In this document: positions 1 to 62,355 of the stretch, piece by piece
Layout of the letters: each line of letters opens with the position of its first letter
Position numbering within the stretch: position 1 is the first letter of the stretch
NCBI GenBank assembly: GCA_964447515.1
Contig: CAYUSS010000004.1
Span: 532 to 64,531 of the forward strand
Source of the DNA: an uncultured Candidatus Saccharibacteria bacterium
GTDB lineage: Bacteria; Patescibacteriota; Minisyncoccia; Minisyncoccales; GWA2-38-27
Length of the DNA: 64,000 nt
Direction: 5' to 3'
Notes under the pieces: generated by a model
Databases searched by the model: none
What the model saw: only the letters and a program-made list of their open reading frames with translations
What the model was told of the DNA's origin: nothing
Program-made: the position numbers and the translations under genes

Positions 1-302
1 TTGAAACTGTTTTCATTAAAGACGAAGTTTTATTACCTGAAAAAGTTGATTTGATTTTTTTAAGGAATGTTTATCATCATCTAAAAGTAAGAAATAGAAT
101 AGAATATTTTAGAGAGTTGAAAAAATATCTAAAGAAAAAAAATAAATTGGTAGTTGTAGAACGGGAAAAGACTAAAGTATTAAGCCATGGGACTCAAAAA
201 CAAACTATTTTAGATGAACTAGGAAGAGCGGGATATAAAATTGTTAAAGATTACGATATTTTACCAAAACAGAATTTTTTGATTTTTGAGAAAGCCGAGT
301 AG
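1..302 (+). CDS. class I SAM-dependent methyltransferase, C-terminal part (5' end outside window)
   Basis: Frame is open from base 3 to TAG 300-302. The segment VDLIFLRNVYHHL resembles the conserved D..F..N..HH motif region of Methyltransf_11/25-type enzymes. Confidence 0.45.
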   Translation, partial: ETVFIKDEVLLPEKVDLIFLRNVYHHLKVRNRIEYFRELKKYLKKKNKLVVVEREKTKVLSHGTQKQTILDELGRAGYKIVKDYDILPKQNFLIFEKAE

Positions 303-449: not shown

Positions 450-491
450 AATTTTCCATTCTCAAAAAGCCCTGATTTTCCCTTTAAAATT

Positions 492-680
492 CAGGTTCGA
501 GACCGACTAAGGGAGCAAATTTAAAAATCCCCTTGAGGGACTTTTAAATTTGTTTTGAGGTTTTGTTGAGAACCAAGCCCCTGAATTGCGACGAGCGAAG
601 CGAGGAGGCAATGTCTTTCGGGCAACTCATTCGAATCCAAGCCCCGGAGCCAACAAAAATCGCCTTTTTGGCGATTTTTT
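492..680 (+). repeat. composite structured repeat, copy A, upstream of S51 peptidase 1
   Basis: Starts with CAGGTTCGAGACCGACTAAGGGAGC. Contains a 15-bp stem CAAATTTAAAAATCC / GGACTTTTAAATTTG and ends in the hairpin AATCGCC/GGCGATT plus a T-run. Near-identical to copy B at 1399-1666 apart from indels. Confidence 0.7.
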
Positions 681-694
681 GCTAAAGTAGAATA

Positions 695-1348
695 ATGAAA
701 CTTCTTTTAACATCAGCTGGTTGGTGGAAAAACCCTAAAATAGGGAAAGAGTTTTTGAAATTGGTAGACAGAAAACCTTCTGAGATTAGAATATTTTTGG
801 TTATAATTCCAGTTAAGTATTTTAAACGGAACAAATATATATTAAGGCAATTCAGACAGTTTAAGGGCATTAAAATACCAGAACAAAATATCACATTTTT
901 TCAATTGAACAGAAAAATTAAAAAAGATGATTTAAAAAACACAGATGTTATTTTTATTTTTGGAGGAAATACCTTTGATTATTTAGACAGAATTAGGAAA
1001 ACAGGTCTTGATAAAGCGATAAAGAGTTTTGTAAAAAAGGGAGGGATATATCTTGGGTTAAGCGCTGGCAGTTATGTCGTTTGCCCCACCATTGAGGCTG
1101 CTACTTGGAAAAATGCAAACAATAACACAGTAGGACTTAAAAACTTAAGGGGATTGAATCTCGTTCCTTTTTTAATAACAGCACACTTTGAAAATAAATA
1201 TCATAAAATCGTTAAACAAGCTGCCAAAACAACAAAATATCCTATCATTGCACTAACCGATAATCAGGCAGTTTTAGTTAGGGGGAAACAAGTAAGGATT
1301 ATTGGAATAGGTAAAAAGAATATTTTTAATACATCAAACAGGTTCTAA
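695..1348 (+). CDS. peptidase S51 (dipeptidase E-like) family protein
   Basis: 217 aa. IFIFGGNTFDYL and GGIYLGLSAGSYV match the S51 / type-1 glutamine-amidotransferase-like nucleophile region. The stop codon TAA lies inside the GGTTCTAAC repeat motif. Confidence 0.7.
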   Translation: MKLLLTSAGWWKNPKIGKEFLKLVDRKPSEIRIFLVIIPVKYFKRNKYILRQFRQFKGIKIPEQNITFFQLNRKIKKDDLKNTDVIFIFGGNTFDYLDRIRKTGLDKAIKSFVKKGGIYLGLSAGSYVVCPTIEAATWKNANNNTVGLKNLRGLNLVPFLITAHFENKYHKIVKQAAKTTKYPIIALTDNQAVLVRGKQVRIIGIGKKNIFNTSNRF

Positions 1349-1666
1349 CATCGTCTATTTAAATCAGGTATATAAATCCCTTCAGTCTCCCTGATTCTGG
1401 TTCTAACATCGTTCACGATGGGGAGCAAATTTAAAAATCCCTTTGAGGGACTTTTAAATTTGTTTTGAGGTTTTGTTGAGAACCAAGCTCCTGAATTGCG
1501 ACGAGCGAAGCGAGGAGGCAATGCCTCTCGCCTCGCTTTCGCTGAGGCGAAGCGGGTCGGGCAACTCATTCGAATCCAAGCCCCGGAGCACGCTAGTGCT
1601 CAGTTCGAGCGACCGAGCCGCCCAGCAAAATAAAGAATCGCCAGAATGGCGATTCTTTGATATAAT
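1339..1666 (+). repeat. composite structured repeat, copy B, upstream of S51 peptidase 2
   Basis: GGTTCTAACATCGT occurs twice (1341-1354, 1399-1412), followed by GGGGAGC and the same 15-bp stem as copy A. Extra GC-rich hairpin inserts are present, then hairpin AGAATCGCC/GGCGATTCT and TATAAT 1661-1666. Confidence 0.7.
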
Positions 1667-1706
1667 AAATAAGGTTTATACGTTTTTAATTGATTCTATT
1701 AATAAT

Positions 1707-2330
1707 ATGAAATTTTATTTATCTTCTTATAAATTAGGTGATGAAATTGCCAAATTAAAGGAATTAATACCTGCAGAAAATAAAAAGACTGCATATATTT
1801 CTAATGCGCTTGATTTTTCAGATGACCTAGAAAGAAGAAAGAAAAGCGAACAAGATGATATAGAACAACTTAAAGAATTGGGTGTAGAAATTGAATTGGT
1901 GGATTTACGCAACTATTTCAACAAACAAAGTGAGCTAGAAAAAAAGATTGCTGAATTTGGTGTAATTTGGGTAAGAGGAGGCAACATTTTTGTGCTTAGA
2001 CAAGCAATGAAAACAAGCGGTTTTGATACTATTTTGAAAAACCTTGTTAAAAAAGATGATGTTTTGTACGGAGGATATAGTGCAGGAATTTGTGTATTGG
2101 GGCCAACCTTGAAAGGTATGGATTTAATAGATAATGCGAGTATAAAACCCTATGGAGATCAATCCGAAATTATTTGGGATGGTCTCGGTATTATTAACTA
2201 TTCTATAATCCCTCACTATAAATCAGATCATCTCGAAACAGAAAAGGCAAAAGAGGCCGTTGAATACATGGTAGAAAATAAAATACTGTTTAAAGCGCTC
2301 AAAGATGGAGAAGTTATTATTATTGAATGA
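1707..2330 (+). CDS. peptidase S51 (dipeptidase E-like) family protein, second divergent paralog
   Basis: Start taken at ATG 1707 (MKFYLSS...), because the track extension back to 1473 only translates the repeat. VIWVRGGNIFVL and GGYSAGICVLGP are S51-like. Confidence 0.7.
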   Translation: MKFYLSSYKLGDEIAKLKELIPAENKKTAYISNALDFSDDLERRKKSEQDDIEQLKELGVEIELVDLRNYFNKQSELEKKIAEFGVIWVRGGNIFVLRQAMKTSGFDTILKNLVKKDDVLYGGYSAGICVLGPTLKGMDLIDNASIKPYGDQSEIIWDGLGIINYSIIPHYKSDHLETEKAKEAVEYMVENKILFKALKDGEVIIIE

Positions 2331-2392
2331 ATTAAAACTTTTTATAGAATTTGGGTTAGATAAGAATGAGATATTTAAAATACCATTAAGTA

Positions 2393-2528
2393 GTGTCTCA
2401 TTTGTCTTATTTTAGCTTAAAAACCAGAAAAAATGAGACACGGGTCTTATCCTCAAAGCGACCTATTCCCGTCAGGAAAGGTCTTCGGTTTCCCTCTCAA
2501 AAGATGGTTCTGAACCCGACCGGGGAGC
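2393..2528 (+). repeat. intergenic repeat family 'GTGTCTCATTT hairpin ... GGTTCTGAACCCG..GGGGAGC', copy 1
   Basis: 11-bp stem GTGTCTCATTT/AAATGAGACAC, then CAAAGCGACC..CCCGTCAG..TTTCCCTCTCAAAAGATGGTTCTGAACCCGACCGGGGAGC. Matches 3778-3961 except for an indel of about 45 nt. Confidence 0.75.
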
Positions 2529-2583
2529 TCACTTTGGCCGCTTTCTCAAGAATGCGGTTTTCTGGTAGAATTAAGAATATATA

Positions 2584-2865
2584 ATGCAAATCTCTCAAAT
2601 TTTATTTTATATTTTAATAGCTTTTATTGGATACGCTATTGGAAGAATAGGTCATATTTATGGTGGATATTTAAAAGCGCCTCATCATTGGATTTACGGG
2701 TTAATTTTAATAATTTTAGGCCTAATCTTTTATAAAAACCTCTTAGGATTATTGGTTTTCTTTTTTGGGATAGGCCATTTTATAAGCGACTTTAAGGATT
2801 TCTTACACTTAAAATTTTACGGAGTAGACGAAGAAGGAGAAAAGAAATTCTGGGGGATTGACTAA
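2584..2865 (+). CDS. small integral membrane protein (about 3 TM), function unknown
   Basis: 93-aa ORF with hydrophobic segments ILFYILIAFIGYAIG, WIYGLILIILGLIF and LLGLLVFFFGIGHF. Confidence 0.5.
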   Translation: MQISQILFYILIAFIGYAIGRIGHIYGGYLKAPHHWIYGLILIILGLIFYKNLLGLLVFFFGIGHFISDFKDFLHLKFYGVDEEGEKKFWGID

Positions 2866-2906
2866 AAACAGGTTCTAACATCGTCCAGGCGGGAGCCACG
2901 ATTTTT

Positions 2907-2932
2907 CAAGCCATCAAGGCTTGTTTTTTTTT
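2907..2932 (+). terminator. intrinsic terminator-like hairpin
   Basis: CAAGCC-ATCA-AGGCTTG followed by an 11-nt T-run. Confidence 0.5.
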
Positions 2933-3144
2933 CGGTGGATTGAACAAATTACTGCTATGGCGCAACAGGAATGCACATCACCCATTTATGGGGGCTAATT
3001 CAAGACTTCTATGAACTCTCTTAATCTCTGCTACTTTCTCTTTCATCATCGCCATATACTCCCTATTCTCCAGAACTAAGATGAGTTTTTTAAAAATTGT
3101 TGAACGGGGGAGCCAATTTCATAATGTCATTAGAGAATTCAGGT

Positions 3145-3175
3145 AATCGCCTTTTGGGCGGTTTTTTGGTAGAAT
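3145..3175 (+). promoter_or_regulatory. terminator hairpin fused to extended -10 (TGGTAGAAT)
   Basis: AATCGCC-TTTT-GGGCGG hairpin and T-run, then TGGTAGAAT ending at 3175. Same module as 658-693, 50167-50198 and 62231-62261. Confidence 0.45.
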
Positions 3176-3224
3176 AAATTAGGAATTAAAGGTCGAAGAA
3201 CTAAAAATTAAATAATGTAAATTT

Positions 3225-3506
3225 ATGTTGTCACAAATACCTATTAATCTTGAGAAAGTAAAAAAAGAGGATATTGATAAAGAAATTTTAAGAGTGGGAA
3301 TAATAGCCGAATTAGATGCTATAAATCTTTATGAACAAATGGCAGCTGTCACCGAAACCGAAAATATCAAGAAAACTCTTTTGGATATAGCCAAAGAAGA
3401 AAAAACCCATATGGGAGAATTTCAGGCACTACTGTTGAAGGAAGATTCAGAACAGAGGGAAGAATTAGAAGAGGGTAAAAAAGAAATAGAAGAATTAACT
3501 GAATAA
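3225..3506 (+). CDS. small ferritin-like (EncFtn / rubrerythrin-like) protein
   Basis: 93 aa. AELDAINLYEQ ... AKEEKTHMGEF follows the E-x-x-(D/E)A(V/I)xxY(D/E)Q ... EEKxH di-iron pattern of encapsulated-ferritin-like proteins. No encapsulin shell gene is present in the window. Confidence 0.55.
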   Translation: MLSQIPINLEKVKKEDIDKEILRVGIIAELDAINLYEQMAAVTETENIKKTLLDIAKEEKTHMGEFQALLLKEDSEQREELEEGKKEIEELTE

Positions 3507-3569
3507 TATTATTTTAATTCAGCAGAAATCACTTTCCTGCCGAGGCGGTTTTTTTGGTAGAATAAATTA

Positions 3570-3753
3570 ATGAAAAAGGTTTCCCCTGTATCTGTATGTA
3601 ATTGGCGTTATTATCGTCCTCGTGCTTATAAACTACATTGCGTGGTCCGTGGGAGGAGAGGCGAAGTTAAAAAGTTTTGAGCTACTCTCCAGCGGCTTTT
3701 TGTTAGGGATGCTGACAATGTATATAGCGGTGCATATCTATCGCTGGAAATGA
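3570..3753 (+). pseudogene. small 2-TM membrane protein interrupted by a 1-nt frameshift in an A5 run right after the ATG
   Basis: ATG 3570 sits 6 nt after TGGTAGAAT. The 2-TM ORF (..LYLYVIGVIIVLVLINYIAW...GFLLGMLTMYIAVHIYRWK, stop 3751-3753) is in the +1 frame and has no start of its own. Removing one A of ATGAAAAAGG joins the two. Confidence 0.4.
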
Positions 3754-3777
3754 GACAGTTCCAAACACCCTCTTTCT

Positions 3778-3961
3778 GTGTCTCATTTGTCTCATTTTAG
3801 CTTAAAAACCCTGAAAAATGAGACACGGCCCTTATTCACTTTAATACTATCTTTTCTATCATATTCTGGCCTTATTTTGCTTGCTTCAAAGCGACCCGTC
3901 CCCGTCAGAAGGAGCATCGGGTTTCCCTCTCAAAAGATGGTTCTGAACCCGAGTGGGGAGC
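3778..3961 (+). repeat. intergenic repeat family 'GTGTCTCATTT hairpin ... GGTTCTGAACCCG..GGGGAGC', copy 2
   Basis: Same ends as 2393-2528. The track ORF 3778..4017 only translates this repeat. Confidence 0.75.
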
Positions 3962-3971
3962 TTCGAAAATC

Positions 3972-3999
3972 AAAACACCCAATGATTTGGGTGTTTTTT
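3972..3999. terminator. bidirectional terminator-like hairpin between convergent genes
   Basis: AAACACCCA-ATGAT-TTGGGTGTTT flanked by an A-run and a T-run. Confidence 0.55.
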
Positions 4000-4029
4000 A
4001 AATTTGCCACCCGCTAAAATCGCTGCTTT

Positions 4030-5319
4030 TTATTTCCGTTTTAGTCTTTTGATTTTCAGTTTTTTTAATGAGAATTTTGCCGTTAAAACCCTGTCTGTAT
4101 TAAACAGCCATATTGCTACATACATTGTAACTGCAGCAAAAATAATCATATATGCTATTCCGCCAAGAACAATCGGATAGTTTTGAAATATGAGGGCTTT
4201 TGAAGCAATAATCGGATGAGCAAAAGGTATAGCATATAAAAATATTTTCATTGGCAGAGAAAGCATTTCTACATCTTGAAACATTAGTAAAACATAAGGA
4301 ATCATTGCTAATAAAACAATAGGCATATTCATAATGTGGGCATTTTTTGTGCTTTGGGCAAACATTCCCAATATCATAGATATTGATAGAGCAATAAGAA
4401 TTGCCAGGAATAAAGAGATTCCCAAGAGGGTATAAGACAAAGGAGTCATTGTTAATCCTAAATCCTCAAGAATCGCTTTGCCGCTAGGAATAGCTGGCGT
4501 TATAGATGACATATAATATCTAAAACCTCCTAAAAAAACACCCGCCATTAAAAGAGCAACTACTGTCGCCCCAGTCATTTTTCCAATAACAATTGATGTT
4601 CTCTTTACCGGTAAAGTTAACAAAGTTTCTAAAGTTTTATTTTCTTTCTCTGAAACCATTGAAGTTACTATTGTTCCCCCCGCATAAATTATTAACATCA
4701 TCAAAATAACCGGTATCATCACTGATTGAGACACAACCAAACCTTCAATTATTACTGGATTCCCAGAAACCATTTTATCTTTTACTACCACAAACTCTTT
4801 TATATTTAGAGGACTTATTATATCTCCTGGATTTTTATCAGGAAAAGCTTCTTGAATAAAATTTATTGATATTTCTCTGTTAATAGAACCTATTATTGCA
4901 TTAATTGTTGCATCCGAAATCATTCCTTTCATGCTTAGTCTCTTTATTATAGAGTAAAGTTCTAAATCTACCCTTTTCTTTATTTTGATATCTTCTCCAA
5001 AATTTTCCGGGACTACCAAAAGAACTTTTGCCTCTTTTTCTTTTGCTTGCTCAATTGCTTTTTCAATATCAATTTCTGTAATTTCTGCTATTTCTATAGT
5101 TTTTTGTTGCGATAATTTATCTAAAATGCCTTTTGAGTATTGGGATTTATCTAAATCTAAAACCGCTAAATTTATTAGTTCATTGTCTTTTTCCCTAATG
5201 CCTTTCATAAAATTAGCCATTATACCAAACATAGCTATCATAAAAACCAAACCAAATATCATTTGTTTAGTCATCAATTCCTTTATTTCTTTTTTGAGAA
5301 TATTGTAAAAGTTTTTCAT
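4030..5319 (-). CDS. ABC-2 type transporter permease
   Basis: 429 aa with an N-terminal TM, a large extracytoplasmic loop and a C-terminal cluster of about 5 TMs. Shares a 4-nt overlap with the upstream ATPase gene. Confidence 0.75.
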   Translation of the reverse strand: MKNFYNILKKEIKELMTKQMIFGLVFMIAMFGIMANFMKGIREKDNELINLAVLDLDKSQYSKGILDKLSQQKTIEIAEITEIDIEKAIEQAKEKEAKVLLVVPENFGEDIKIKKRVDLELYSIIKRLSMKGMISDATINAIIGSINREISINFIQEAFPDKNPGDIISPLNIKEFVVVKDKMVSGNPVIIEGLVVSQSVMIPVILMMLIIYAGGTIVTSMVSEKENKTLETLLTLPVKRTSIVIGKMTGATVVALLMAGVFLGGFRYYMSSITPAIPSGKAILEDLGLTMTPLSYTLLGISLFLAILIALSISMILGMFAQSTKNAHIMNMPIVLLAMIPYVLLMFQDVEMLSLPMKIFLYAIPFAHPIIASKALIFQNYPIVLGGIAYMIIFAAVTMYVAIWLFNTDRVLTAKFSLKKLKIKRLKRK

Positions 5320-6038
5320 CTTATTGCGTTGATAAACACTTCTTCGATATTTTTAGCATTATATTTGTCTTTTAATCCTTGAGGGGTGCCGGTTTCTAAT
5401 ATTAGCCCTTTATCTATCAAAGTAATTCTGTCGCATAAGAATTCCACTTCCAGCATATTATGAGAGGACAACAAAACCGTTGTTCCTTTTTTAACAAAGT
5501 CCTTTATTATTCCTCTTATTTCCTGGGAAATTATCACATCCAACCCCGATGTTGGTTCATCTAAAATAGCCAACTTAGGATTTATCATCAATGCCCTGGC
5601 GAGCAACAACCTTCTGCTCATTCCTTTGCTATAAGTACTTACTTTACCTTTTAGGCGTTTTCCAAGTTTAGCCAATTCTATTCCTCTCTCCATTATCTCT
5701 CTTTTTTCTTCATTGTCCTTTGAATAAAAACTAGCCATAAATTCCAAATAAGCTTTCCCTGACAGATTTTTATAAGCACCAGCTTCTTCCGGCAAATAAC
5801 TAATTCTCTCTCTAACTTTGTCTGCTTTTTTAATTACATCATAGCCGAAGACCTTCACTTCTCCAGAAGTAATTTGCAGCAGTGTTGAAATAATTCGTAA
5901 AGCAGTAGTTTTTCCGGCAGCATTCGGGCCAATCAAACCAAAAATCTCTCCCTGATTTACTTCAAAAGAAATACCTTTCAGAGCCCTAAAATTCCCATAG
6001 TCTTTTATTAAATCTTTAACTTCTGTTGCTTTATTCAT
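5316..6038 (-). CDS. ABC transporter ATP-binding protein
   Basis: Walker A GPNAAGKTT, signature YSKGMSRRL, Walker B LAILDEP. Start chosen at MNKATEVKDL (6038); the track start at 6080 is an alternative. Confidence 0.85.
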   Translation of the reverse strand: MNKATEVKDLIKDYGNFRALKGISFEVNQGEIFGLIGPNAAGKTTALRIISTLLQITSGEVKVFGYDVIKKADKVRERISYLPEEAGAYKNLSGKAYLEFMASFYSKDNEEKREIMERGIELAKLGKRLKGKVSTYSKGMSRRLLLARALMINPKLAILDEPTSGLDVIISQEIRGIIKDFVKKGTTVLLSSHNMLEVEFLCDRITLIDKGLILETGTPQGLKDKYNAKNIEEVFINAIR

Positions 6039-6171
6039 ATAAAGTTTTTTTATATTAGCATATTTAATAAAATCAGCCAAAATTCAAATTAAACAAATAA
6101 GTTCGAACGTTGTTCGTTCCCCAGAGCTATCTAATCTGGTCGCCGACCCGAATTTTTGGTATAATTTAGTT

Positions 6172-6357
6172 ATGAAAAAACAAACATGCATCATAGTAGC
6201 GATTATAGCGGTTATAGTTATTGTCCAATTAATTGGATTTTTAATGTCCGACACAGGTTACTTTTTTTCACCAACAATTGATGCCATCTTAGGTGGTATT
6301 GAGCTATTTGGTCTTGGTATCTGGTTAGGCGTTTCTATTGGCAAAAAGAGGAGTTGA
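6172..6357 (+). CDS. small 2-TM membrane protein
   Basis: 61-aa hydrophobic ORF. TGGTATAAT 6157-6165 lies 6 nt upstream of the ATG. Confidence 0.45.
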   Translation: MKKQTCIIVAIIAVIVIVQLIGFLMSDTGYFFSPTIDAILGGIELFGLGIWLGVSIGKKRS

Positions 6358-6366
6358 TAAAACCAG

Positions 6367-6471
6367 GTTCTAACATCGTTCAACCCCAGGCACCCTAATC
6401 CTGAAAATCTCCAATTCTTCCCTTATTTTTCTCCAATCAATGGTTCTGAATGCGTTCTGTATGGGGAGCAT
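6367..6471 (+). repeat. GGTTCTAAC...GGGGAGC junction repeat (copy G); contains candidate 33-aa ORF on the minus strand (6370..6471)
   Basis: GGTTCTAACATCGTTC 6367-6382 and GGTTCTGAATGCGTTC..GGGGAGC 6442-6469. The minus strand reads MLPIQNAFRTIDWRKIREELEIFRIRVPGVERC, with AAGGA 11 nt upstream of its ATG. Confidence 0.6.
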
Positions 6472-6495
6472 GATTTTTCAATCCTTATTTTTTAG

Positions 6496-6524
6496 TTGAC
6501 TAATTATTTTTTAGGTGTTAGTAT
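6496..6524 (+). promoter_or_regulatory. sigma70-like promoter of the cold-shock gene (TTGACT-17-TAGTAT), giving a 5' UTR of about 100 nt
   Basis: TTGACT 6496-6501, 17-nt spacer, TAGTAT 6519-6524. Long csp leaders are typical of the family. Confidence 0.5.
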
Positions 6525-6631
6525 TATTTACATAAGATAGTCACCTAATGAAAATTTAGTCGAGTTTATTTAGGAAACTAAACTTTAGGATAAAACCTTA
6601 AAACGTTAATTAATTAATTTATATCACAATT

Positions 6632-6829
6632 ATGGAAGGAACAATTAAAACTCTTACAGAAAAAGGATTTGGATTTATTACTGTTGATGGTGAAGACAAA
6701 GATTTATTCTTTCACAGTAACGAACTTAAGGGCGTAACCTACGAGGAGTTAAAAGTAGGAGATAGAGTGTCTTTTGAAAAAGCTGATTCTGAAAAAGGAC
6801 CCAACGCAACAAACGTAACCCGCATTTAA
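6632..6829 (+). CDS. cold-shock domain protein (CspA family)
   Basis: 65 aa with RNP-1-like KGFGFI and RNP-2-like LFFHS motifs. Confidence 0.9.
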   Translation: MEGTIKTLTEKGFGFITVDGEDKDLFFHSNELKGVTYEELKVGDRVSFEKADSEKGPNATNVTRI

Positions 6830-6862
6830 GAATTGATTCAATAAAATCAGATAGATGAGAAT

Positions 6863-6889
6863 CAAGCCCATTCTCGGGCTTGGTTTTTT
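6863..6889 (+). terminator. intrinsic terminator after csp
   Basis: CAAGCCC-ATTCTC-GGGCTTG followed by TTTTTT. Confidence 0.6.
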
Positions 6890-6897
6890 ATAAAACA

Positions 6898-7001
6898 GGG
6901 TTCTATCACTGTCCATCCTTTGTTAAATTGGGCATCCGAATTTCTAACTCTTTCCTAATTTCTATCCAATCCAAAGTTCTAAACATGTCCAATAGGGGGA
7001 G
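6898..7001 (+). repeat. GGTTCTAAC...GGGGAGC junction repeat (copy H, degenerate)
   Basis: GGGTTCTATCACTGTCC 6898-6914 and AGTTCTAAACATGTCC..GGGGGAG 6976-7001. The internal 50 nt align with copies G and I. Confidence 0.55.
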
Positions 7002-7055
7002 TTAGCTTCAGAAAATCGCTAAGAAGTCGGTTTTTTGATAGAATTAAATAGAATT

Positions 7056-7694
7056 ATGAAAATATCAAAAGCAGAATTTGCTAAAGGTGTTATCGGGGAC
7101 GATTACGGTTTGGAAGGCAATTTACCGCACATCGCTTTTTTTGGCCGCTCCAATGCAGGGAAATCAAGCGTGATTAACTCTTTAGTCGGGAAAAAAGACC
7201 TTGTAAAAACAAGCAAGATGCCGGGGAAAACACGTGAAGCGAATTTTTTCCGTATCAATGATTCTTTCTATTTTGCGGATTTTCCCGGATATGGATATGC
7301 CAAGCATTCAATATTGGAGCGCAACAAAATGATCAAAAGGATTTTTTGGTATGTGGAGTTTTCCAATGTGAGGCCCAAAGCAGTTTTCTTAATTATTGAC
7401 GCTGATGTTGGTTTGACTGTCCTTGATCGGGATATGATAAAAATTCTCAAGACAAATAAACATCAAATTGTCATTATTGCAAACAAAATTGATAAATTAA
7501 CTAAAGGCGCCGCGGGAAAACAGCTTTCCTCAATCCAAAAAGAAGCGCGAGATATACCTGTTTTGAGATATTCGGCTAAAACAAACGAAGGAAAAGACGA
7601 ATTAACTAAAAAAATTGCGAGTTTTGTACAAAAAAAGCCCGACCGAGACGGGTTGTGCCCGAGAGTCAAAATTCTGCGTCCGGATTTTCACTGA
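7056..7694 (+). CDS. engB: ribosome-biogenesis GTPase YihA/EngB
   Basis: G1 GRSNAGKSS, G3 DFPGYG, G4 NKIDK. Start taken at ATG 7056, because the track TTG 7035 lies in the promoter module. The C-terminal 20 aa are GC-rich repeat-like sequence. Confidence 0.85.
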   Translation: MKISKAEFAKGVIGDDYGLEGNLPHIAFFGRSNAGKSSVINSLVGKKDLVKTSKMPGKTREANFFRINDSFYFADFPGYGYAKHSILERNKMIKRIFWYVEFSNVRPKAVFLIIDADVGLTVLDRDMIKILKTNKHQIVIIANKIDKLTKGAAGKQLSSIQKEARDIPVLRYSAKTNEGKDELTKKIASFVQKKPDRDGLCPRVKILRPDFH

Positions 7695-7819
7695 AATACG
7701 TTCGGATTTTATCCAGGGTGCGGAGCAAATTTTTTGTTTAAAAAGCTAAGGTGTTATTGCTTTTTATTTGTTATAAGTATATACTCTAATTAGCTAAAAC
7801 TATAATTAAAATTAGAAAT

Positions 7820-8398
7820 ATGGAAAATTTTAAACGAAACAATAGATCCGGCGGGAGAGGAAATAGCGGAAGATTTGCCGGCCGGAATTCAGGAAGACCA
7901 GCAATGCATAGGGCTATTTGCAGCGAATGTGGAAAAGACTGTGAAGTACCCTTTAAGCCAACTGGGGATAAACCCGTTTTCTGTAGTGACTGTTTCAGGA
8001 GCAAGAGAAATGCGGAACCGAGAAGATTCAGCGGAAAAGATTCCGGAAGATTTAATTCCGGCAATAAAAGAATGTACAAAGTGGTTTGCGACAAGTGCGG
8101 AAAGGAATGCGAAGTCCCTTTCAGGCCCACGAGTGACAAACCGATTTATTGCAGCCAATGTTTTAGCAGGGGAGGCAAAGATAAAAGTTCCGACCAAGTA
8201 AGCAAGCAATTTGAGATAATAAACGCCAAACTTGATAAAATCTTAAAAGCGTTAAGTCCCTGTATCTCTGCGGAAGCGGATGAAAAGAAAAAAACAATCA
8301 AAAAAACGGAAATTTCTAAACCCAAAAAAATAAGCAAGAGCAAAGACAAGAAGGTCATTTCTCCTAAAAAAGCAAAAGAAAAAAAGAAAAGGTTATAA
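7820..8398 (+). CDS. tandem zinc-ribbon protein (2x CxxCG...VPF.P....KP(V/I)(F/Y)CxxCF) with RG-rich N-terminus and Lys-rich tail
   Basis: Two internal repeats: CSECGKDCEVPFKPTGDKPVFCSDCF and CDKCGKECEVPFRPTSDKPIYCSQCF. The basic flanks suggest nucleic-acid binding. Confidence 0.5.
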   Translation: MENFKRNNRSGGRGNSGRFAGRNSGRPAMHRAICSECGKDCEVPFKPTGDKPVFCSDCFRSKRNAEPRRFSGKDSGRFNSGNKRMYKVVCDKCGKECEVPFRPTSDKPIYCSQCFSRGGKDKSSDQVSKQFEIINAKLDKILKALSPCISAEADEKKKTIKKTEISKPKKISKSKDKKVISPKKAKEKKKRL

Positions 8399-8620
8399 TA
8401 TAACTAATAAAAAATAAAAGGTAAAAAAAATGGGCATAGGATGGCATAACAGAAAAAGGCTTAATAAAAAGTTAAAAAAAAGAAGAATAAAAAGAAACCA
8501 ATCAAAGAAAAAGTGAAAGATAAGAGAAAATTAAGAAAATTCTACTAAATAGACTTAACATTATTTATACAAAATAGATCCTAAATTTGCTAACCTTTCT
8601 TTGATTTTATTCCAATCTAT

Positions 8621-8720
8621 GGTTCTAAACGCGTCACGTAGAGGGAGCAGGATAGTGAGACCGTTTGGGAGACAGAGAGGCCTACTTTGAAGCTATTTTC
8701 ATGACGGGTTTAGAACGTCC
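8621..8720 (+). repeat. GGTTCTAAC...GGGAGC junction repeat (copy I) with an inverted partner
   Basis: GGTTCTAAACGCGTCA..GGGAGC at 8621-8649. The inverted near-copy TGACGGGTTTAGAACG lies at 8703-8718. Confidence 0.55.
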
Positions 8721-8797
8721 TAAGCCCGCATAGCACTAGGGCGACCGGAAAGATTTGACTTTAAAATTGTCCTTTGCACGGTTTTTGACAAAAATAC

Positions 8798-8826
8798 TTG
8801 ACTTTTTGTCAGCAGTAAGCTATTGT
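8798..8826 (+). promoter_or_regulatory. sigma70-like promoter (TTGACT-17-TATTGT) giving a 5' UTR of about 200 nt for the RRM protein gene
   Basis: TTGACT 8798-8803, 17-nt spacer, TATTGT 8821-8826. The leader contains hairpin ATTGCAAC-GCAA-GTTGCAAT at 8980-8999 (GNRA loop). Confidence 0.4.
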
Positions 8827-9032
8827 AGTAAGGTAAGTTTCTGTTAATTTTCCTTTCCTTGCATATTTATTAATTATGTAAGCTCTGAAAGAAAATAAAA
8901 ACAGTGGTCGGCTTACTCATAAATAAATAGCGTAAGGAACAATTATACTTCTAGGGATATTTTTTACTACAAAATTATAATTGCAACGCAAGTTGCAATA
9001 ATTCTAGAGATAATTTTCACTTTGCTCGCATT

Positions 9033-9353
9033 ATGGCAAAAAAATTGTTTGTTGGTGGATTATCTTACGAGACCACCGAAGCGACTTTAAAAGAGACTTT
9101 TTCTCAGGCTGGAACCGTTGAATCGGCAACTGTGATTACCGATAAAATGTCCGGCCGTTCAAAGGGATTTGGTTTTGTTGAAATGTCTTCTGAAGAAGAA
9201 GCTCAAAAAGCCATTGAGATGTTCAATGGTAAAGAGATTGACGGGAAAAACGTTACAGTAAACGAAGCTAAACCTTTAGAGTCTCGTCCTCGAAGAGGTG
9301 GATTTAATCGCGGAAATCGAGACTTCGGCGGAAACCGAAGAGATCGCTGGTAA
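9033..9353 (+). CDS. RRM-type RNA-binding protein with RG-rich tail
   Basis: RNP-2 LFVGGL and RNP-1 KGFGFVEM. C-terminal tail RRGGFNRGNRDFGGNRR. Confidence 0.9.
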   Translation: MAKKLFVGGLSYETTEATLKETFSQAGTVESATVITDKMSGRSKGFGFVEMSSEEEAQKAIEMFNGKEIDGKNVTVNEAKPLESRPRRGGFNRGNRDFGGNRRDRW

Positions 9354-9365
9354 GAAAGTTGAAAA

Positions 9366-9389
9366 AAATCCCCTTATGGGGATTTTTTT
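9366..9389 (+). terminator. intrinsic terminator after the RRM gene
   Basis: AAATCCCC-TTAT-GGGGATTT followed by a T-run. Confidence 0.65.
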
Positions 9390-9536
9390 CATTTCTGTTT
9401 GAAATTTATCGCCATTTTGGCGGTTTCAGGTGTTTCATTCAGCACAAAAGTAATCACTGTGTTCAACAGTGTTGGAAATAAAGAGGTTTTATTTGGCCCT
9501 AGGGGAGCCAAAATCAAAATTTTCTAAAAAAATATT

Positions 9537-24697: not shown

Positions 24698-26716
24698 ATG
24701 ATGATGAGAACAAAAATTTTCTTAATTTCTTTTATTTTAAGTTTAGCTTTCTGGTGGGGGATAAATAGTTTGGTAGAGAATTTAGAAGATTTTTTATTTT
24801 GGCAGGAAATATCTAAACAGCCGGGAATATTTACTGCCAAGGCAAGTCAACAAATTCCTAGAAACGAAGTAGAGAGATTAAGGTTTGAAAGACTACAAAC
24901 CGAATTAAAAAATTTAAAAATTGAGGCCAAAGCTGCAATTTCGGTTTTGATAAATGGTAATGGAGAGGAAAGAATTCTTTTTGGAAAAAATACTGACCAG
25001 AGATTATCAATTGCTAGTTTGACCAAATTAATGACCGCCCTTATTGTTCTGGAAAATTATGACCTTTCAAGAGAAATTACGATTTCTAAAGAAGCTATTA
25101 ACCAGCCGGGGGATTTTGGGAAATTAGAAGCAGGAAAGAATTTTCCGGTGAGATATTTACTTTATCCCTTATTAATAGAATCAAGCAATGATGCTGCTTT
25201 CTCTTTAGCCAATGATTACGAAGAGATGACAGAAGAAAAATTTGTTGAGTTGATGAATTTGGAAGCCCAAAAAATGAATCTGGAGAATACTTTTTTTGTT
25301 AATTCTACCGGTATTGACCCCAAGGAACCGGAAACCGAAATAAACAATGAGACGTTTAACGTCTCATGTGAGGGAAATTATTCAACTGCTGCTGATTTGG
25401 TTAAATTTACTAAAGAATTATTTAAAAAACCCTTAATTTGGGAAATTCTTTCTACCCCGGAATTTAATCTTTATGGACCAAAACTTATTAATACTAATGA
25501 GCTTTTAGAAGAATCTCTCGGTTGGTCGAACAGAATTATTGGAGGGAAAACCGGCGAAACCCCTCAAGCTAATGGTTGTTTTCTTTTAGTTCTTAAAACC
25601 CCTCAATCAGATTACTTAATAAATATAGTTTTGGGTTCAAACGACCGCTTTGGAGAAATGCGAAAATTATTAAATTGGCTGGAGAAAAAAGAAGAAGTAA
25701 ACCCCGTTAGAGATTCCGAGAGTAGAGAAGAAGCACAGAAAAAGGGTATCTCTAACGGGGCAAAAACTTTTGACCCGGCTTTATTGGAGTGGGAAGAGAT
25801 AACCTCTAATGCTCCCTGGTCTCCAAGAGACTCCCATGGTACTGTAGTTTTTCAAAATAAAATTTGGTTAATGGGAGGATTAAATGGAAATGGGTTTCAA
25901 GATAAAAATGGCAATGTTCCTTATTGGAGAGTACCTCATTATAGTGATGTTTGGTCTTCAAAAGACGGAAGAAATTGGCAGCTTGTTACTAAAAATGCTC
26001 CCTGGGGTAAAAAAAGGTCAATGCAAGCCATAGTTTTTAAAAATAAAATCTGGTTAATTGGGGGCTGGGGACCGGAAATTGGATATTCAAATGATATCTG
26101 GGTTACAGAAAATGGAATTGATTGGGAAAAGATAGAACCAAAAGGAGAATTACCGGCAGTGGAAGGAGACCAGTTAGTTGTTTTTGAAGACAAATTATGG
26201 TTAATTGGCGGAGTAAGATACGACGAAAGAAAGGAAAAAAATTATGTTTGGGTTTCTGAAGACGGCATTAATTGGACTGAAGCTACTGAAAGAGCGCCTT
26301 GGTCGCCGAGATGGGATCATACGGTAACCGTATTTAAAAATAAATTGTGGCTTATTGGCGGTATGAATTTAGAGGGAGAAATTTACCAGGATGTCTGGAG
26401 TTCTCAAGATGGGAAAAATTGGTTATTAGTTACCGATAATCCGCCTTGGCGGGGGAGACAAGGGCATGGCTCGGTAGTTTTTCAAAATAAAATTTGGATT
26501 ATTGGAAGACTTAATGGCAAAAGTACTGGTGGAGATAATGATGTTTGGTATTCAGAAGATGGTTATACTTGGGGAAAAACCCAAAAAAATGCTCCCTGGT
26601 TAGGCAGGGAAGATATTGGGGTTTTGGTCTTTAAAGATAAGATATGGGCATTAGGAGGAATGGATGGTAACTCGGAATGGAAAAATGATATTTGGTTTTC
26701 AATTTTCTCTCCTTAA
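24698..26716 (+). CDS. D-alanyl-D-alanine carboxypeptidase (S11) fused to a C-terminal Kelch-type beta-propeller
   Basis: SxxK SLTKLMT, SSND, and a KTG-like motif (GGKTGET). C-terminal half has about 6 repeats of W(S/G)PR..H..VVF.NK(I/L)WL(I/M)GG. The linker at 25701-25760 is a palindromic element. Confidence 0.75.
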   Translation: MMMRTKIFLISFILSLAFWWGINSLVENLEDFLFWQEISKQPGIFTAKASQQIPRNEVERLRFERLQTELKNLKIEAKAAISVLINGNGEERILFGKNTDQRLSIASLTKLMTALIVLENYDLSREITISKEAINQPGDFGKLEAGKNFPVRYLLYPLLIESSNDAAFSLANDYEEMTEEKFVELMNLEAQKMNLENTFFVNSTGIDPKEPETEINNETFNVSCEGNYSTAADLVKFTKELFKKPLIWEILSTPEFNLYGPKLINTNELLEESLGWSNRIIGGKTGETPQANGCFLLVLKTPQSDYLINIVLGSNDRFGEMRKLLNWLEKKEEVNPVRDSESREEAQKKGISNGAKTFDPALLEWEEITSNAPWSPRDSHGTVVFQNKIWLMGGLNGNGFQDKNGNVPYWRVPHYSDVWSSKDGRNWQLVTKNAPWGKKRSMQAIVFKNKIWLIGGWGPEIGYSNDIWVTENGIDWEKIEPKGELPAVEGDQLVVFEDKLWLIGGVRYDERKEKNYVWVSEDGINWTEATERAPWSPRWDHTVTVFKNKLWLIGGMNLEGEIYQDVWSSQDGKNWLLVTDNPPWRGRQGHGSVVFQNKIWIIGRLNGKSTGGDNDVWYSEDGYTWGKTQKNAPWLGREDIGVLVFKDKIWALGGMDGNSEWKNDIWFSIFSP

Positions 26717-29412: not shown

Positions 29413-30528
29413 ATGAGAGATAAAAAAATTTGTCATTTCGATTATAGTTTAGCCATTGTAGTAGCCGTCTTGCTAATTTTGGGGATTTTAGTTTTGGCTA
29501 ACGTTTCGGCAGTTTTTTCTCAAGAAAAATTTGGAAAAACAACTTATTATCTTTCACATCAAATAATTTATGGATTATTTCTTGGAATTCTTTTAGGTTT
29601 TATTGCATTCAAAATTCCCTTATCCCGGTTTAAAAAGTGGGCCTGGCCCTTGGTTTTATTAAATTTAATCTTAATGCTCTTGGTCTTTATTCCAGGAATA
29701 GGCATTGTTTCGGGTGGAGCGCCGCGTTGGTTAAATTTGGGGTTTGTTTCCTTTCAACCGTCTGAGTTTTTAAAACTTGGTTTTATTCTTTATCTCTCTG
29801 CCTGGTTAACTAGTTGGACAAAAAAAAATTCCCACAAAAAAACTGGTGGGGTGTTTACCCTGATTCCTTTCCTTATAATAGCAGGGGTTATTATCTTTCT
29901 TTTAAGCTGCCAATCAGATATTAGCACTTTAGGGGTAATTATTTGTGTTGCTTTATTAATGTATTTTTCAGCAACTACCCCTTTATGGCATATTATTTTA
30001 ATGGCTTCAATTTTTAGCGGAGTGATGTTGGCTTTAATAACAGTTGCTTCTTATAGAATGGAGAGAATTTTAGTTTTTTTAGGGATGAAAAGCGACCCAA
30101 TAGGAATAGGTTATCAAATAGAGCAGGCTCTGATTACAGTAGGTTCAGGAGGAATTTTTGGATTGGGACTGGGCGCGTCTAAGCAAATTGATTTTCTCCC
30201 CCAGACAATGTCAGATTCAATTTTTGCTATCTATGCAGAAGAAACAGGGTTTATTGGTTCTCTGGTTTTAATTTTTCTTTTTTTATTTTTCCTTTGGAGA
30301 GCATTTAAAATTGTCAAAAAGAGCTCTGATAAATTTTCTCAGATTCTGGCAATTGGAATAAGTTCCTGGATTTGTATCCAGGCCTTTGTTAGTATCGGCG
30401 CTATGATTGGCATTTTGCCCCTAACCGGCATCCCTTTGCCTTTTATTAGTTATGGAGGTTCACATCTAATTGTTGAGCTTATTGGAGTGGGAATACTGCT
30501 TAATGTTGCCCGACAGGGTTCGAACTAG
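29413..30528 (+). CDS. ftsW: SEDS-family peptidoglycan polymerase FtsW/RodA
   Basis: 10-TM pattern, with QPSEFLKL and PLPFISYGGSH. The last codons and stop (CAGGGTTCGAACTAG) resemble the junction repeat. Confidence 0.88.
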   Translation: MRDKKICHFDYSLAIVVAVLLILGILVLANVSAVFSQEKFGKTTYYLSHQIIYGLFLGILLGFIAFKIPLSRFKKWAWPLVLLNLILMLLVFIPGIGIVSGGAPRWLNLGFVSFQPSEFLKLGFILYLSAWLTSWTKKNSHKKTGGVFTLIPFLIIAGVIIFLLSCQSDISTLGVIICVALLMYFSATTPLWHIILMASIFSGVMLALITVASYRMERILVFLGMKSDPIGIGYQIEQALITVGSGGIFGLGLGASKQIDFLPQTMSDSIFAIYAEETGFIGSLVLIFLFLFFLWRAFKIVKKSSDKFSQILAIGISSWICIQAFVSIGAMIGILPLTGIPLPFISYGGSHLIVELIGVGILLNVARQGSN

Positions 30529-30654
30529 CATCAATTTAGCGGAGCCAATTTGAGTTACCTTCTGCGTTACTCGTCGCTCGTGTGTAGATACTTACAAAGG
30601 CAAGCAAAAGATGATAGAATATGAAAAAGCAAAGCAAAATCTTTTCGGCGTTTT

Positions 30655-61899: not shown

Positions 61900-62230
61900 A
61901 ATCTGAGTCTTTTTTATATTGACAATATGTTTTAATTTGCTAAAATTAAACATAGAAGATAAATAATTATGCAAATATCTTTTAGTATTCAATCCGTTGT
62001 TTTAGTTCTCGTCAGCCTTCTTGAAAGGATTGGAAAAAGGTGTCAGGAACCTTTTTTAGTGGAAAAAATGGTGTCAGGTCTGGTTTTAAGAAAATAGTGA
62101 ATAGCAGGGTAGGGTGAATTTGATATAATGATTTTAAGCTTGTGGGACTTAAGTTTGGGATGTAAATATACTCATCTGATTACCGGATAATAGTTCTAAC
62201 GTTGTCCACGATGCGGAGCCGGGCTCAAAA

Positions 62231-62268: not shown

Positions 62269-62355
62269 ATGAATATTGAAGTGGAGATAAAAGTTAAAAT
62301 AGATAGTCTTGGTCAGAAAAAGGGGTCAGGAACCTTTTTTGCAATAAGAAAATAG
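62269..62355 (+). pseudogene. truncated CYTH-domain gene start (28 codons)
   Basis: MNIEVEIKVKIDSL resembles the E.E.K beta-1 strand start of CYTH/CyaB-like proteins. The ORF runs into the hairpin AAAAAGGGGTCAGGAACCTTTTTT and stops. Confidence 0.35.

Follow-up and report, generated by a model that had tools for sequence, protein, structure and literature searches.

In the staphylococcal cassette chromosome (SCC, including SCCmec), Ccr serine recombinases direct cassettes into a short site located at a gene's 3' end; the elements (3-60 kb) are bounded by direct repeats of the integration site, there is one chromosomal site, in rlmH, and tandem arrays occur that include elements without a recombinase. 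In integrons, the attC sites carry imperfect inverted repeats (R''/L'' ... L'/R') that fold to a hairpin and are recognized by this folded palindromic structure, and the cassettes seldom contain promoters (PMC4889954). Here, we describe a short dispersed repeat in a 64,000-nt stretch of DNA from an uncultured Candidatus Saccharibacteria bacterium (contig CAYUSS010000004.1; hereafter, the window), where it lies between small co-oriented genes. The repeat is likely to be the attachment (att) core of integrative elements of Patescibacteria that encode a large serine recombinase (LSR), and the arrays in which it occurs would be relics of serial insertion. A preliminary description of the window had offered three readings of the repeat, namely, a site at which gene cassettes recombine or join, decayed fragments of a minus-strand gene with many copies, and a family of antisense micro-open reading frames (ORFs); the evidence given below partly supports a combination of the first two.

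The motif has the consensus A-AACAGGTTCTAACATCGTCC-N7-GGAGC(CA), measures about 32-38 bp, resembles a tRNA end, and exists in a short form (AACAGGTTCTAACATCGTCCAGCCAGGGGAGCCA) and in long forms, which consist of two direct copies of GGTTCTAAC[AG]TCGT lying 45-200 nt apart. Its presence in the window is real and far beyond chance: when up to 3 mismatches are allowed, the 17-mer AACAGGTTCTAACATCG matches 4 times, a count that none of 100 shuffles attains, with an expectation of 0.05, and the composite pattern GTTC[TG]RA..N4-22..GRGAG[CT] matches 7 times on the + strand within 1400-8650 and, outside this interval, once on each strand, both times in unrelated sequence. About 13 copies lie on the + strand between 490 and 9510, and only 2 in the remaining 54 kb; within the first 9.5 kb, all copies are on the strand of most neighboring genes. 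A DNA uptake sequence and a Ter-like or KOPS-like polar motif can be ruled out because the copies are clustered in this way.

Reading and scoring confirmed the motif at most of the sites first described (490, 1337/1397, 2506, 2866, 3097, 3939, 6362/6440, 6893/6973, 8619, and 62191), those at 7715-7735, 9455-9509, and 30516-30546 are present as weak resemblances, and a copy at 6097-6127 (ATAAGTTCGAACGTTGTTCGTTCCCCAGAGC) and tRNA-type relics at 620-652 and 1559-1589 were added. As first described, ORF 695..1348 does end with the TAA inside GGTTCTAAC (1346-1348). That the motif starts 0-10 nt past a stop codon is true at 1337, 2866, and 6362 and not at 6893, which lies 64 nt past the csp stop, behind a terminator hairpin. 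The proposal that each unit is bounded by the repeat is only roughly correct, with exceptions at the ABC-transporter operon (4030-6080) and at the engB/zinc-ribbon junction, where no good copy is found.

The origin of the repeat can be read from its opposite strand. The minus strand of every copy reads L-[P/R]-x-h-D-D-V-R-T, and in the long forms the antisense frame continues through, with the + strand of these segments closed by stops; the three minus-strand peptides reported for copies G, H, and I translate exactly as given, and copy G is a 33-codon ORF with ATG. Two tail families that can be aligned gap-free across genomes were used for a codon-substitution test of the minus frame, a check that the preliminary description had proposed. 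Differences fall on the three codon positions as 129/118/284 in the first family and 68/49/109 in the second, and synonymous differences number 152 in the antisense frame versus 36 and 46 in the other frames and 50 versus 15 and 4, respectively, that is, they are 3 to 12 times commoner in the antisense frame. This third-position excess, present in both families, excludes a purely RNA- or DNA-level explanation for the long-form segments.

The protein to which the frame belongs was reached by a profile search with the G/H/I peptide, likewise proposed at the outset. Against 1.84 billion representatives, the profile retrieved 94 clusters at E<=1e-3, nearly all tiny predicted ORFs, and a few of them fuse the peptide to recombinase C-terminal sequence; these fused clusters lead to an LSR family, of which extended profile and single-sequence searches gave 177 homologues at E<=1e-3 and 430 at E<=1e-20. 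Full-length homologues have 500-540 aa, start with MKAI..RVSTEEQ, and carry the domains PF00239, PF07508, and PF13408 (Resolvase, Recombinase, and Zn_ribbon_recom); the family is already known, its full-length relatives being annotated at the source as 'recombinase family protein' or 'site-specific DNA recombinase' of Patescibacteria/Paceibacterota. We compared the sequence after the conserved ..SPFNLVLELADSPNW-L in 112 full-length members. At least 32 end in a tRNA-type tail (WLRGQDSNLRP), RGQDSNLRP being the well-known antisense translation of the tRNA T-arm and acceptor end; in 43, the frame closes no more than 4 codons after ..SPFNLVLELADSPNW-L; and 13 have motif-type tails, which cover all tail families of the window: (i) the WLRIVEDVRTIIQQQNEYIYIPDL tail of protein P0313 is the type of window copies B and O (P-numbers denote LSR-family proteins, and L-numbers denote loci, as tiles or contigs, from public genomes); (ii) the WLPLLDKFRTLNWxxIKxEL tail, present in six proteins, is the type of copies G, H, and I; and (iii) the WLRxxDDVRTC.. 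tail is the short-form type. In blastp-short comparisons, residues ~499-530 of LSRs of 530-540 aa are matched by the peptides of window copies G, H, I, B, and O. It follows that the motif-final GGAGCCA represents the W-L-[P/R] codons in reverse complement, and N7, the variable part, equals two codons.

The antisense peptides of the window are almost certainly relics of LSR tails. No recombinase body or LSR gene is present in the 64-kb window, and a Pfam scan of the peptides found nothing; the reading as decayed fragments of a multicopy minus-strand gene is nevertheless demonstrated, the gene being an LSR gene and the fragments its last 10-40 codons. The same data bear on whether the peptides could be independent antisense micro-proteins of ~25-35 aa (MDDVRT.., MLPIQNAFRTIDW..), for example toxin-like or regulatory ones, as the frame-specific excess of synonymous changes, the ATG and AAGGA of copy G, and the 94 clusters of small predicted ORFs that hold the peptide might suggest. 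This is very unlikely: neither the start codon nor the Shine-Dalgarno spacing is conserved, the predicted ORFs carry arbitrary N-terminal extensions, no Pfam family matches, decay is visible as an in-frame stop at 62192, and the same sequences form the C-terminal ends of 500- to 540-aa recombinases. The antisense coding signature exists because the peptides descend from recombinase genes, and the micro-ORF reading is not upheld.

Intact recombinase genes show how tail and motif are connected. All three intact LSR genes of the canonical-motif type with a 3' junction that could be read (L134, L146, and L143) end across a motif copy on the opposite strand, and host-like genes lie beyond each of these ends. 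On a 174-kb contig (L134), the recombinase gene ends with ..TGGCTCCGCACCTGGGAGGATGTTCGAACCTGTATT.., the reverse complement of the motif copy TACAGGTTCGAACATCCTCCCAGGTGCGGAGCCA; past this end there are three further co-oriented sites with one small motif-strand gene between each, and upstream of the recombinase lie ResIII, methyltransferase, and HTH_17 protein genes. The LSR gene of L146 ends across AACAGGTTCGAACATCGTCCAGTATGCGGAGCCA, and that of L143, which encodes the long-tailed P0313, across a P-type site, as we term sites that lack the AACA left flank and have a tail module on the left, in distinction to B-type sites, which have the AACA flank. The recombinase of L047 (27% identity to the family) was not used as evidence, since the resemblances to the motif within its last 60 codons are only weak.

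The tRNA-like appearance of the motif also finds its place here. In L087, a C-terminal LSR fragment overlaps, antisense, a real tRNA-Asn gene ending GGTTCGAATCCTGCCGCTGGAGCCA, and the motif has the appearance of a degenerate 3' end of tRNA(Asn), namely, of GGTTCGAATCCTGCCGCTGGAGCCA with an altered and lengthened T-stem. A functional tRNA at the element end is thus a feature of sister LSR elements, such as that of L087, and not of the motif itself; in the window, the only tRNAs, at 48.4 and 50.1 kb, are distant from the array. A separate case of DNA at a tRNA end was seen on the reverse strand of the Zixibacteria sequence OY970208.1 (L024, 2700-3790), where three identical tandem copies of a 91-aa GIY-YIG gene come after a tRNA-Met gene and a duplicated tRNA 3' fragment stands behind each copy; this resembles a further small element that accretes at the end of a tRNA.

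A wider census of the repeat, run on tiles of public genomes, revealed co-oriented arrays in many Patescibacteria. The exact 18-mer AACAGGTTCTAACATCGT occurs in at least 120 8-kb tiles; among the matches listed, these are mostly from Patescibacteria of many classes, the others being a closed Zixibacteria chromosome and metagenome-assembled genomes (MAGs) of Ignavibacteria, Terriglobales, Omnitrophota, and Firestonebacteria, and a few matches are coding coincidences (Poribacteria). Scoring of the tiles gave 317 sites in 114 loci, again among the matches listed. Sites are confined to one strand in 71 of the 77 loci that have two or more; they are spaced at 0.4-1.3 kb, usually with one small motif-strand ORF between, and reach up to ten per 8-kb tile (L037 is an example of an array). 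The neighbors are diverse, with no gene family shared across loci, and no long target gene reads into the motif in 120 loci, the longest open frame being antisense junk. A phage or plasmid origin was rejected, given one match among viral contigs and none among plasmids. In the census, the two site classes also differ on the antisense strand: the frame is open for a median of 20 codons at the 57 sites without the AACA flank and of 7 at the 260 sites with it, and recognizable tail families are found in 26 of the 57.

One recombinase with a long tail of the G/H/I type, P0254, is encoded on three contigs of 6.70-6.78 kb that are mutual circular permutations, with a flanking 795-aa gene, 100% identical, upstream of it in one and downstream in another. 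These contigs have one P-type site and no AACAG flank; going by their permuted order, they are consistent with an excised attP circle and also with a tandem repeat.

From these observations, we infer a crossover within the motif, an assignment of sites to attB, attL, and attR, and a history of accretion followed by decay. With the LSR gene opposite the motif and its last codons (..SPNW-L-[P/R]-x-h-D-D-V-R-T..) being the reverse complement of GGAGCCA ... GGTTC, the gene would end across its own att site. Crossover would occur inside the ~28-bp shared block GGTTCTAAC..GGAGC, and attP x attB recombination would put the element between two motif copies. The attB site would be the short form, that is, host gene, A-AACAG, core, and the hairpin/promoter of the next gene, and attP would consist of distal tail codons, core, and recombinase body. 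The left junction would then comprise the host gene, AACAG-core, and an antisense recombinase with a short ..DDVRT-C-x.. tail (as in P0223, P0224, and P0239), and the right junction would comprise a P' arm with distal tail codons (..RTIDWxKIxEEL.. or ..RTxIxxxxEYIYIPDL..), the core, and downstream host DNA. Arrays of one-gene units, each with its own promoter and terminator and with the motif at its borders, may have arisen as elements inserted again and again into resident copies and then lost the recombinase and most of their cargo. In the window, copies B, G, and H (short site, tail stub, and second site) could be both junctions of an element without its interior, copy I and the copy at 62.2 kb lone right junctions, and copy D and the copy at 6097 plain sites.

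That the motif is or was the attachment site of the recombinase is probable, and a recombination or junction site for gene cassettes, as first suggested, is the most likely function: the 3' end of the LSR gene spans the motif, sister LSRs span tRNA ends, and intact genes abut arrays. Several observations, however, limit or weigh against this interpretation: (i) the second boundary of the L134, L146, and L143 elements was not found; (ii) no pair of occupied and empty sites with a junction at the motif was found; (iii) cassette turnover is not seen in the source population, where every contig with the exact proteins of the window (5-7 samples) keeps the same gene order; (iv) the ~7.1-kb P0274 element (C5 methylase, SacI-like nuclease, HTH_17 protein, and LSR) is identical in five neighborhoods (L138-L142), but its tail has only a degenerate motif and the shared DNA runs ~200-310 nt beyond the LSR stop, so that the junction in this lineage is not at the tail; (v) serine recombinases normally need 2-bp identity and leave no long direct repeats, whereas here 20-38 bp are repeated; (vi) LSR genes are rare compared with motif copies (3 in ~114 tiles, none in the window); (vii) the loci were chosen by an 18-mer that contains AACAGG, which biases the ratio of B-type to P-type sites; and (viii) tidy one-gene units that include housekeeping genes (engB, csp) fit poorly with random decay of 6- to 10-kb elements. 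Several of the P0274 neighborhoods are other restriction-modification or ResIII/methylase modules, in either orientation, and the place looks like a defense-island hotspot.

Some of these points could also be taken to mean that the copies are passive debris, the remains of dead recombinase genes whose true crossover lies elsewhere, with no recombination role for the motif. The borders of P0274 past the LSR stop, the presence of fragments alone in the window, and the in-frame stop at 62192 are in line with this idea. Yet hundreds of copies share sharp 32- to 38-bp limits, which would not be expected from random decay; the left flank (A-AACAG) is conserved although noncoding; a 20-nt block is the same in different classes and phyla; real tRNA 3' ends, which are the classic attB, are overlapped by sister LSRs; and arrays adjoin intact LSR 3' ends. 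We consider passive debris unlikely.

Units of the window recur elsewhere at 79-93% nucleotide identity in other neighborhoods. The csp unit (promoter, 5' untranslated region [UTR], and gene; 6488-6893) is found at 79-89% identity in L074, L099, L080, and L053, always with different neighbors, and is flanked by the motif on both sides in L074 and L053 and, clearly, on the upstream side in L080 and L099. The unit 6097-6362 is 91% identical in L064, where the motif is intact and the match begins exactly at it. By contrast, engB, 90% identical in L075, lies there within an obg-engB operon without the motif. Outside the Patescibacteria, a unit of 530-800 nt is common to the Zixibacteria chromosome, an Ignavibacteria MAG, and a Terriglobales MAG (87-95%). 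Homology breakpoints are 3-fold enriched near motif copies, an effect that we grade as weak because breakpoints favor intergenic DNA anyway. A tentative and less probable alternative to serial insertion and decay is an integron-like capture system of Patescibacteria, and occasionally of other phyla, that is driven by the LSR in place of an IntI tyrosine recombinase and is active rather than a graveyard. Self-contained one-gene cassettes, each with a pseudo-tRNA-end att site at its borders, would be excised and inserted in trans; it would have built the dispersed arrays, moved genes between classes and phyla, and rewritten the recombinase tail with each recombination.

Among the loci examined, some further repeats were noted in their own right. 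A 1.2-kb two-unit block that includes csp is tandemly duplicated in L053 (3198-4921), CAYZSL010000005.1 (L022/L077) has a ~6.5-kb direct repeat of 99.7% identity, and L042 has two identical junctions 2.5 kb apart. In L024 (Zixibacteria), L120, L071, and L072 (Zixibacteria/Ignavibacteria/Terriglobales), the motif has a conserved ~95-nt 5' extension (CAACCTGAAAATATTCYGACGCC ... GAAATAGTGTAAACAGGGTGGGGTAA) and, 83 nt downstream, is accompanied by a site of a second type, AAAAAGTTCTAAACTCGTCC; a csp gene again precedes the motif in L072.

The position of the motif relative to genes raises the question of an RNA-level element, a 3'-UTR or small-RNA module of motif plus following terminator hairpin that acts in stability, termination, or pairing and to which the link with the recombinase would be secondary. 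The motif points in the direction of the genes and begins at or just past stop codons, a hairpin with a T-run starts 50-70 nt downstream in 116 of 253 copies versus 27 of 253 random positions, and GUUCU/GGAGC pairing is possible in 115 of 270 distinct copies, with G-U pairs on the + strand only. There is, however, no covariation, since GGTTCT is invariant and variants other than GGAGC break the stem; the fold energies of most copies are no better than those of shuffles; a terminator lies upstream of the motif in 54 of the 253 copies; and both the antisense coding signature and the continuity with the recombinase would be left unexplained. An RNA-level role as the primary function is thus improbable. 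Several specific structures were also considered and rejected: a tRNA, transfer-messenger RNA, or T-arm fold (the flanks are unpaired, and ARAGORN and Rfam were negative), a self-cleaving ribozyme or other known RNA (the sole Rfam matches in the window are two tRNAs, and even at E<=5 none lies near the motif), a GGUUCU/GGGAGCC hairpin with a variable inner hairpin (no covariation), and a longer structured element (AATAGTGAGTAGCGGGGTGGGG ... motif), which is present in only 7 of 268 copies and whose conservation is due to antisense coding.

[quoted passage not shown] Co-oriented one-gene units of 0.4-1.3 kb, a stop codon inside a YYYAAC box, AAC/GTT triplets, and spread across phyla would be compatible with such a system, and we took TCTAAC..GTTC to resemble the R''/L'' half of a class 1 attC and CGATGTTA to resemble, presumably, the IntI1 binding sites in attI1. 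The inverted partner for which these resemblances prompted a search does not exist. Within 195 nt on either side of 301 sites, GTT[AG]{1,2}GAAC occurs 0 times upstream and 6 times downstream, and AGAACC is no commoner than on the opposite strand. Searches of the window and ~114 loci by phmmer and tblastn with IntI1, VchIntIA, and XerD as queries found no IntI- or Xer-type recombinase in the window and only 2 Xer-like genes in the ~114 loci. Judged at the sequence level, the units have their own promoter-like and terminator-like signals (hairpin, T-run, and TGnTAnAAT upstream of each gene), and, as stated, plasmid matches are absent. The integron analogy implicit in the preliminary description fails on the attC hairpin and the integrase type, and a true integron is hardly credible here.

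Table 1. Copies of the motif and related relics in the window
Feature	Position	Strand	Remarks
Copy A, degenerate short site TCAGGTTCGAGACCGACTAAGGGAGC	490..516	+	By reading; under the scoring threshold; followed by a 110-nt repeat (511-620)
tRNA-type relic GGGCAACTCATTCGAATCCAAGCCCCGGAGCCA, antisense WLRGLDSNELP	620..652	+	tblastn of P0234 residues 502-512 matches 652-620
Copy B-left AACAGGTTCTAACATCGTCT, B-type, AACA left flank	1337..1356	+	TAA is the stop of the S51 peptidase gene 695..1348
LSR C-terminal tail relic LPIVNDVRTRIRETEGIYIPDLNRRC, then stop	1357..1425	-	65% identical to residues 503-525 of P0313 (530-aa LSR)
Copy B-right CTGGTTCTAACATCGTTCACGATGGGGAGCA, P-type, tail module at left	1397..1428	+	
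Second tRNA-type relic (GGGCAACTCATTCGAATCCAAGCCCCGGAGC)	1559..1589	+	Reading, repeat analysis, and tblastn
Copy C GGTTCTGAACCCGACCGGGGAGC	2506..2528	+	End of a 77-nt repeat with second copy at 3886-3962
Copy D, complete short form AAACAGGTTCTAACATCGTCCAGGCGGGAGCCA	2866..2898	+	Between the stop of gene 2584..2865 and the terminator hairpin of that gene
Copy E, 3' half-site TTGTTGAACGGGGGAGCCA (3097-3115) and antisense open frame LPRSTIFKKLILVLENREYMAMMKEKVAEIKRV	2978..3115	-	
Copy F GGTTCTGAACCCGAGTGGGGAGC	3939..3961	+	
Copy ATAAGTTCGAACGTTGTTCGTTCCCCAGAGC	6097..6127	+	5' edge of the unit with gene 6172..6357
Copy G-left ACCAGGTTCTAACATCGTTCAACCCCAGGCACCC, B-type, complete site	6362..6392	+	
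Copy G, relic LSR tail MLPIQNAFRTIDWRKIREELEIFRIRVPGVERC, then stop	6373..6471	-	Matches P0236 residues 499-526; is the 33-codon ORF
Copy G-right ATGGTTCTGAATGCGTTCTGTATGGGGAGCAT, P-type	6440..6471	+	
Copy H-left AAACAGGGTTCTATCACTGTCC, degenerate B-type	6893..6914	+	Past the csp terminator
Copy H, relic LSR tail LPLLDMFRTLDWIEIRKELEIRMPNLTKDGQ, then two stops, with copy H-right (6973-7002)	6909..7002	-	75% identical to P0236 residues 499-518
Partial copy, 3' half only, GGGTGCGGAGCAAA / GGGTGCGGAGC	7715..7735	+	Weak
Copy I, relic LSR tail LPLRDAFRTIDWNKIKERLANLGSILYK, then stop	8564..8649	-	Site 8619-8649 on +
Degenerate copy	9455..9509	+	Only GGGGAGCC (9502-9509) recognizable
Outlier after ftsW ACAGGGTTCGAACTAGCATCAATTTAGCGGAGCC	30516..30546	+	Weak: ACAGGGTTCGAAC..GCGGAGCC
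Outlier O, site AGTTCTAACGTTGTCCACGATGCGGAGCC (62191-62221), tail module before	62100..62221	+	

The antisense translation of the relic at 620 is of the tail type of tRNA-targeting LSRs. For outlier O, the antisense reading is LRIVDNVRTIIR followed, after one in-frame stop, by SDEYIYIPNLSPT, and is 64% identical to the last 28 residues of P0313. The unit of copy E is found again in other genomes; its antisense frame has no match among the LSRs fetched. Some of the copies stand next to larger repeats. The segments 511-620 and 1421-1530 form a 110-nt direct repeat (96% identical) just 5' of both paralogous S51 peptidase genes; it begins with a near-perfect hairpin, AAATTTAAAAATCCC..GGGACTTTTAAATTT, and leads into the two tRNA-type relics. 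Likewise, 2393-2529 and 3778-3962 form a repeated module of ~140-185 nt with a hairpin GTGTCTCATTTGTCT..GAAAAATGAGACAC (90% identical between the copies), followed by a 77-nt segment (83% identical) that ends in copies C and F.

Other features of the window were seen apart from the motif. Inverted repeats of 40 nt (GGAAATAGGGGTCAGCTCTATTTC...) at 326-457 surround a mini-ORF, MPRPLRITTPNTHFHILNKKK, which we presume to resemble the N terminus of Y1 transposases of the IS200/RAYT type (RAYT, repetitive extragenic palindromic [REP]-associated tyrosine transposase), and GG(G/T)GTCAG(G) words related to these repeats occur at 300-350, 62030-62090, and 62320-62340 and in L001 near 2520. A module AAATCGCC-N4-GGCGATTTTTTGGTAGAAT, in which a terminator-like hairpin is joined directly to an extended -10 box, lies at 654, 1632, 3141, 7010, 50164, and 62227; since it is also found behind tRNA-Ala, it represents a general intergenic design of the genome that is independent of the motif. 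L031 and L110 share with the window, at 87-92% identity, the noncoding segment 8790-8941, 5' of the gene for the RRM protein; this is far above the conservation of the neighboring sequence, and the segment may represent a small RNA or a conserved 5' UTR. Finally, a repeat array with a period of ~150 nt and 7 copies of a 34-nt core is located in a coding region at 25845-26658, and a 12-nt repeat of the AACCTCAACCCC type at 59528-59615, in the only GC-rich kilobase of the window.

The Patescibacteria have tiny genomes and few recognized mobile elements, and their gene exchange is poorly understood. Here, hundreds of junctions throughout the phylum carry one short motif, which is tied to a single recombinase family and makes a simple tag for finding accessory-gene islands in Patescibacteria MAGs. 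For genome engineering, the candidate natural attB/attP pair that it offers to a large group of serine integrases, as yet untested, is of interest. Further leads are a recombinase, open to testing, whose C terminus would depend on the integration state of its element and a possible serine-recombinase analogue of the integron. For annotation, the results are a warning, as dozens of 'hypothetical small proteins' in motif-bearing genomes are recombinase tail relics.

To conclude with the systems to which the locus can be compared, the searchable literature, outside which much work lies, held nothing relevant on the motif sequence or on such repeats in Patescibacteria, and no description of a dispersed pseudo-tRNA-end site, of its overlap with the recombinase's own frame, or of one-gene arrays. 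The motif shares with REP sequences, bacterial interspersed mosaic elements, and MITEs (miniature transposable elements with inverted repeats) its short length, high copy number, and mostly intergenic position behind genes and beside terminators, but it is nonpalindromic, lacks terminal inverted repeats and a RAYT link, and is a piece of the end of a coding gene; it is neither a REP nor a MITE. Integron arrays and CALIN resemble it in co-oriented single-gene units, a conserved junction, an array that abuts the recombinase gene, and units common to distant taxa. They differ in that the recombinase here is a serine recombinase and not the IntI tyrosine recombinase, in that there is no folded attC hairpin and the units have promoters and terminators of their own, and in the orientation of the recombinase, which is convergent with the array here and divergent in integrons; because the hairpin, the integrase type, and the mostly promoterless cassettes served by a common Pc promoter are all lacking, the system is not a member of the integrons. 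The locus departs from SCC/SCCmec in its dispersed site, which is located in the 3' end of the recombinase gene itself, and in units that mostly comprise a single small gene. LSR integrative elements, whose attP adjoins or overlaps the recombinase gene, are similar in having a source gene with the full LSR domain set and a cargo of restriction-modification genes and an HTH_17 excisionase-like gene; as in tRNA-targeting islands, which are bordered by direct repeats of the tRNA 3' end, the inserted DNA is flanked by direct repeats of its target end, and sister lineages reach over the 3' ends of real tRNAs. In contrast to these elements and islands, the target is a dispersed pseudo-tRNA-end motif with many copies per genome and not a functional tRNA, the recombinase frame runs through the site, so that the C-terminal tail would change with the recombination state, and the identity block of 20-38 bp, within which crossover is presumed to occur, is long for a serine recombinase. 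The closest relatives are thus, by mechanism, serine-integrase elements and tRNA-targeting islands and, by architecture, SCC composite islands and integron arrays.

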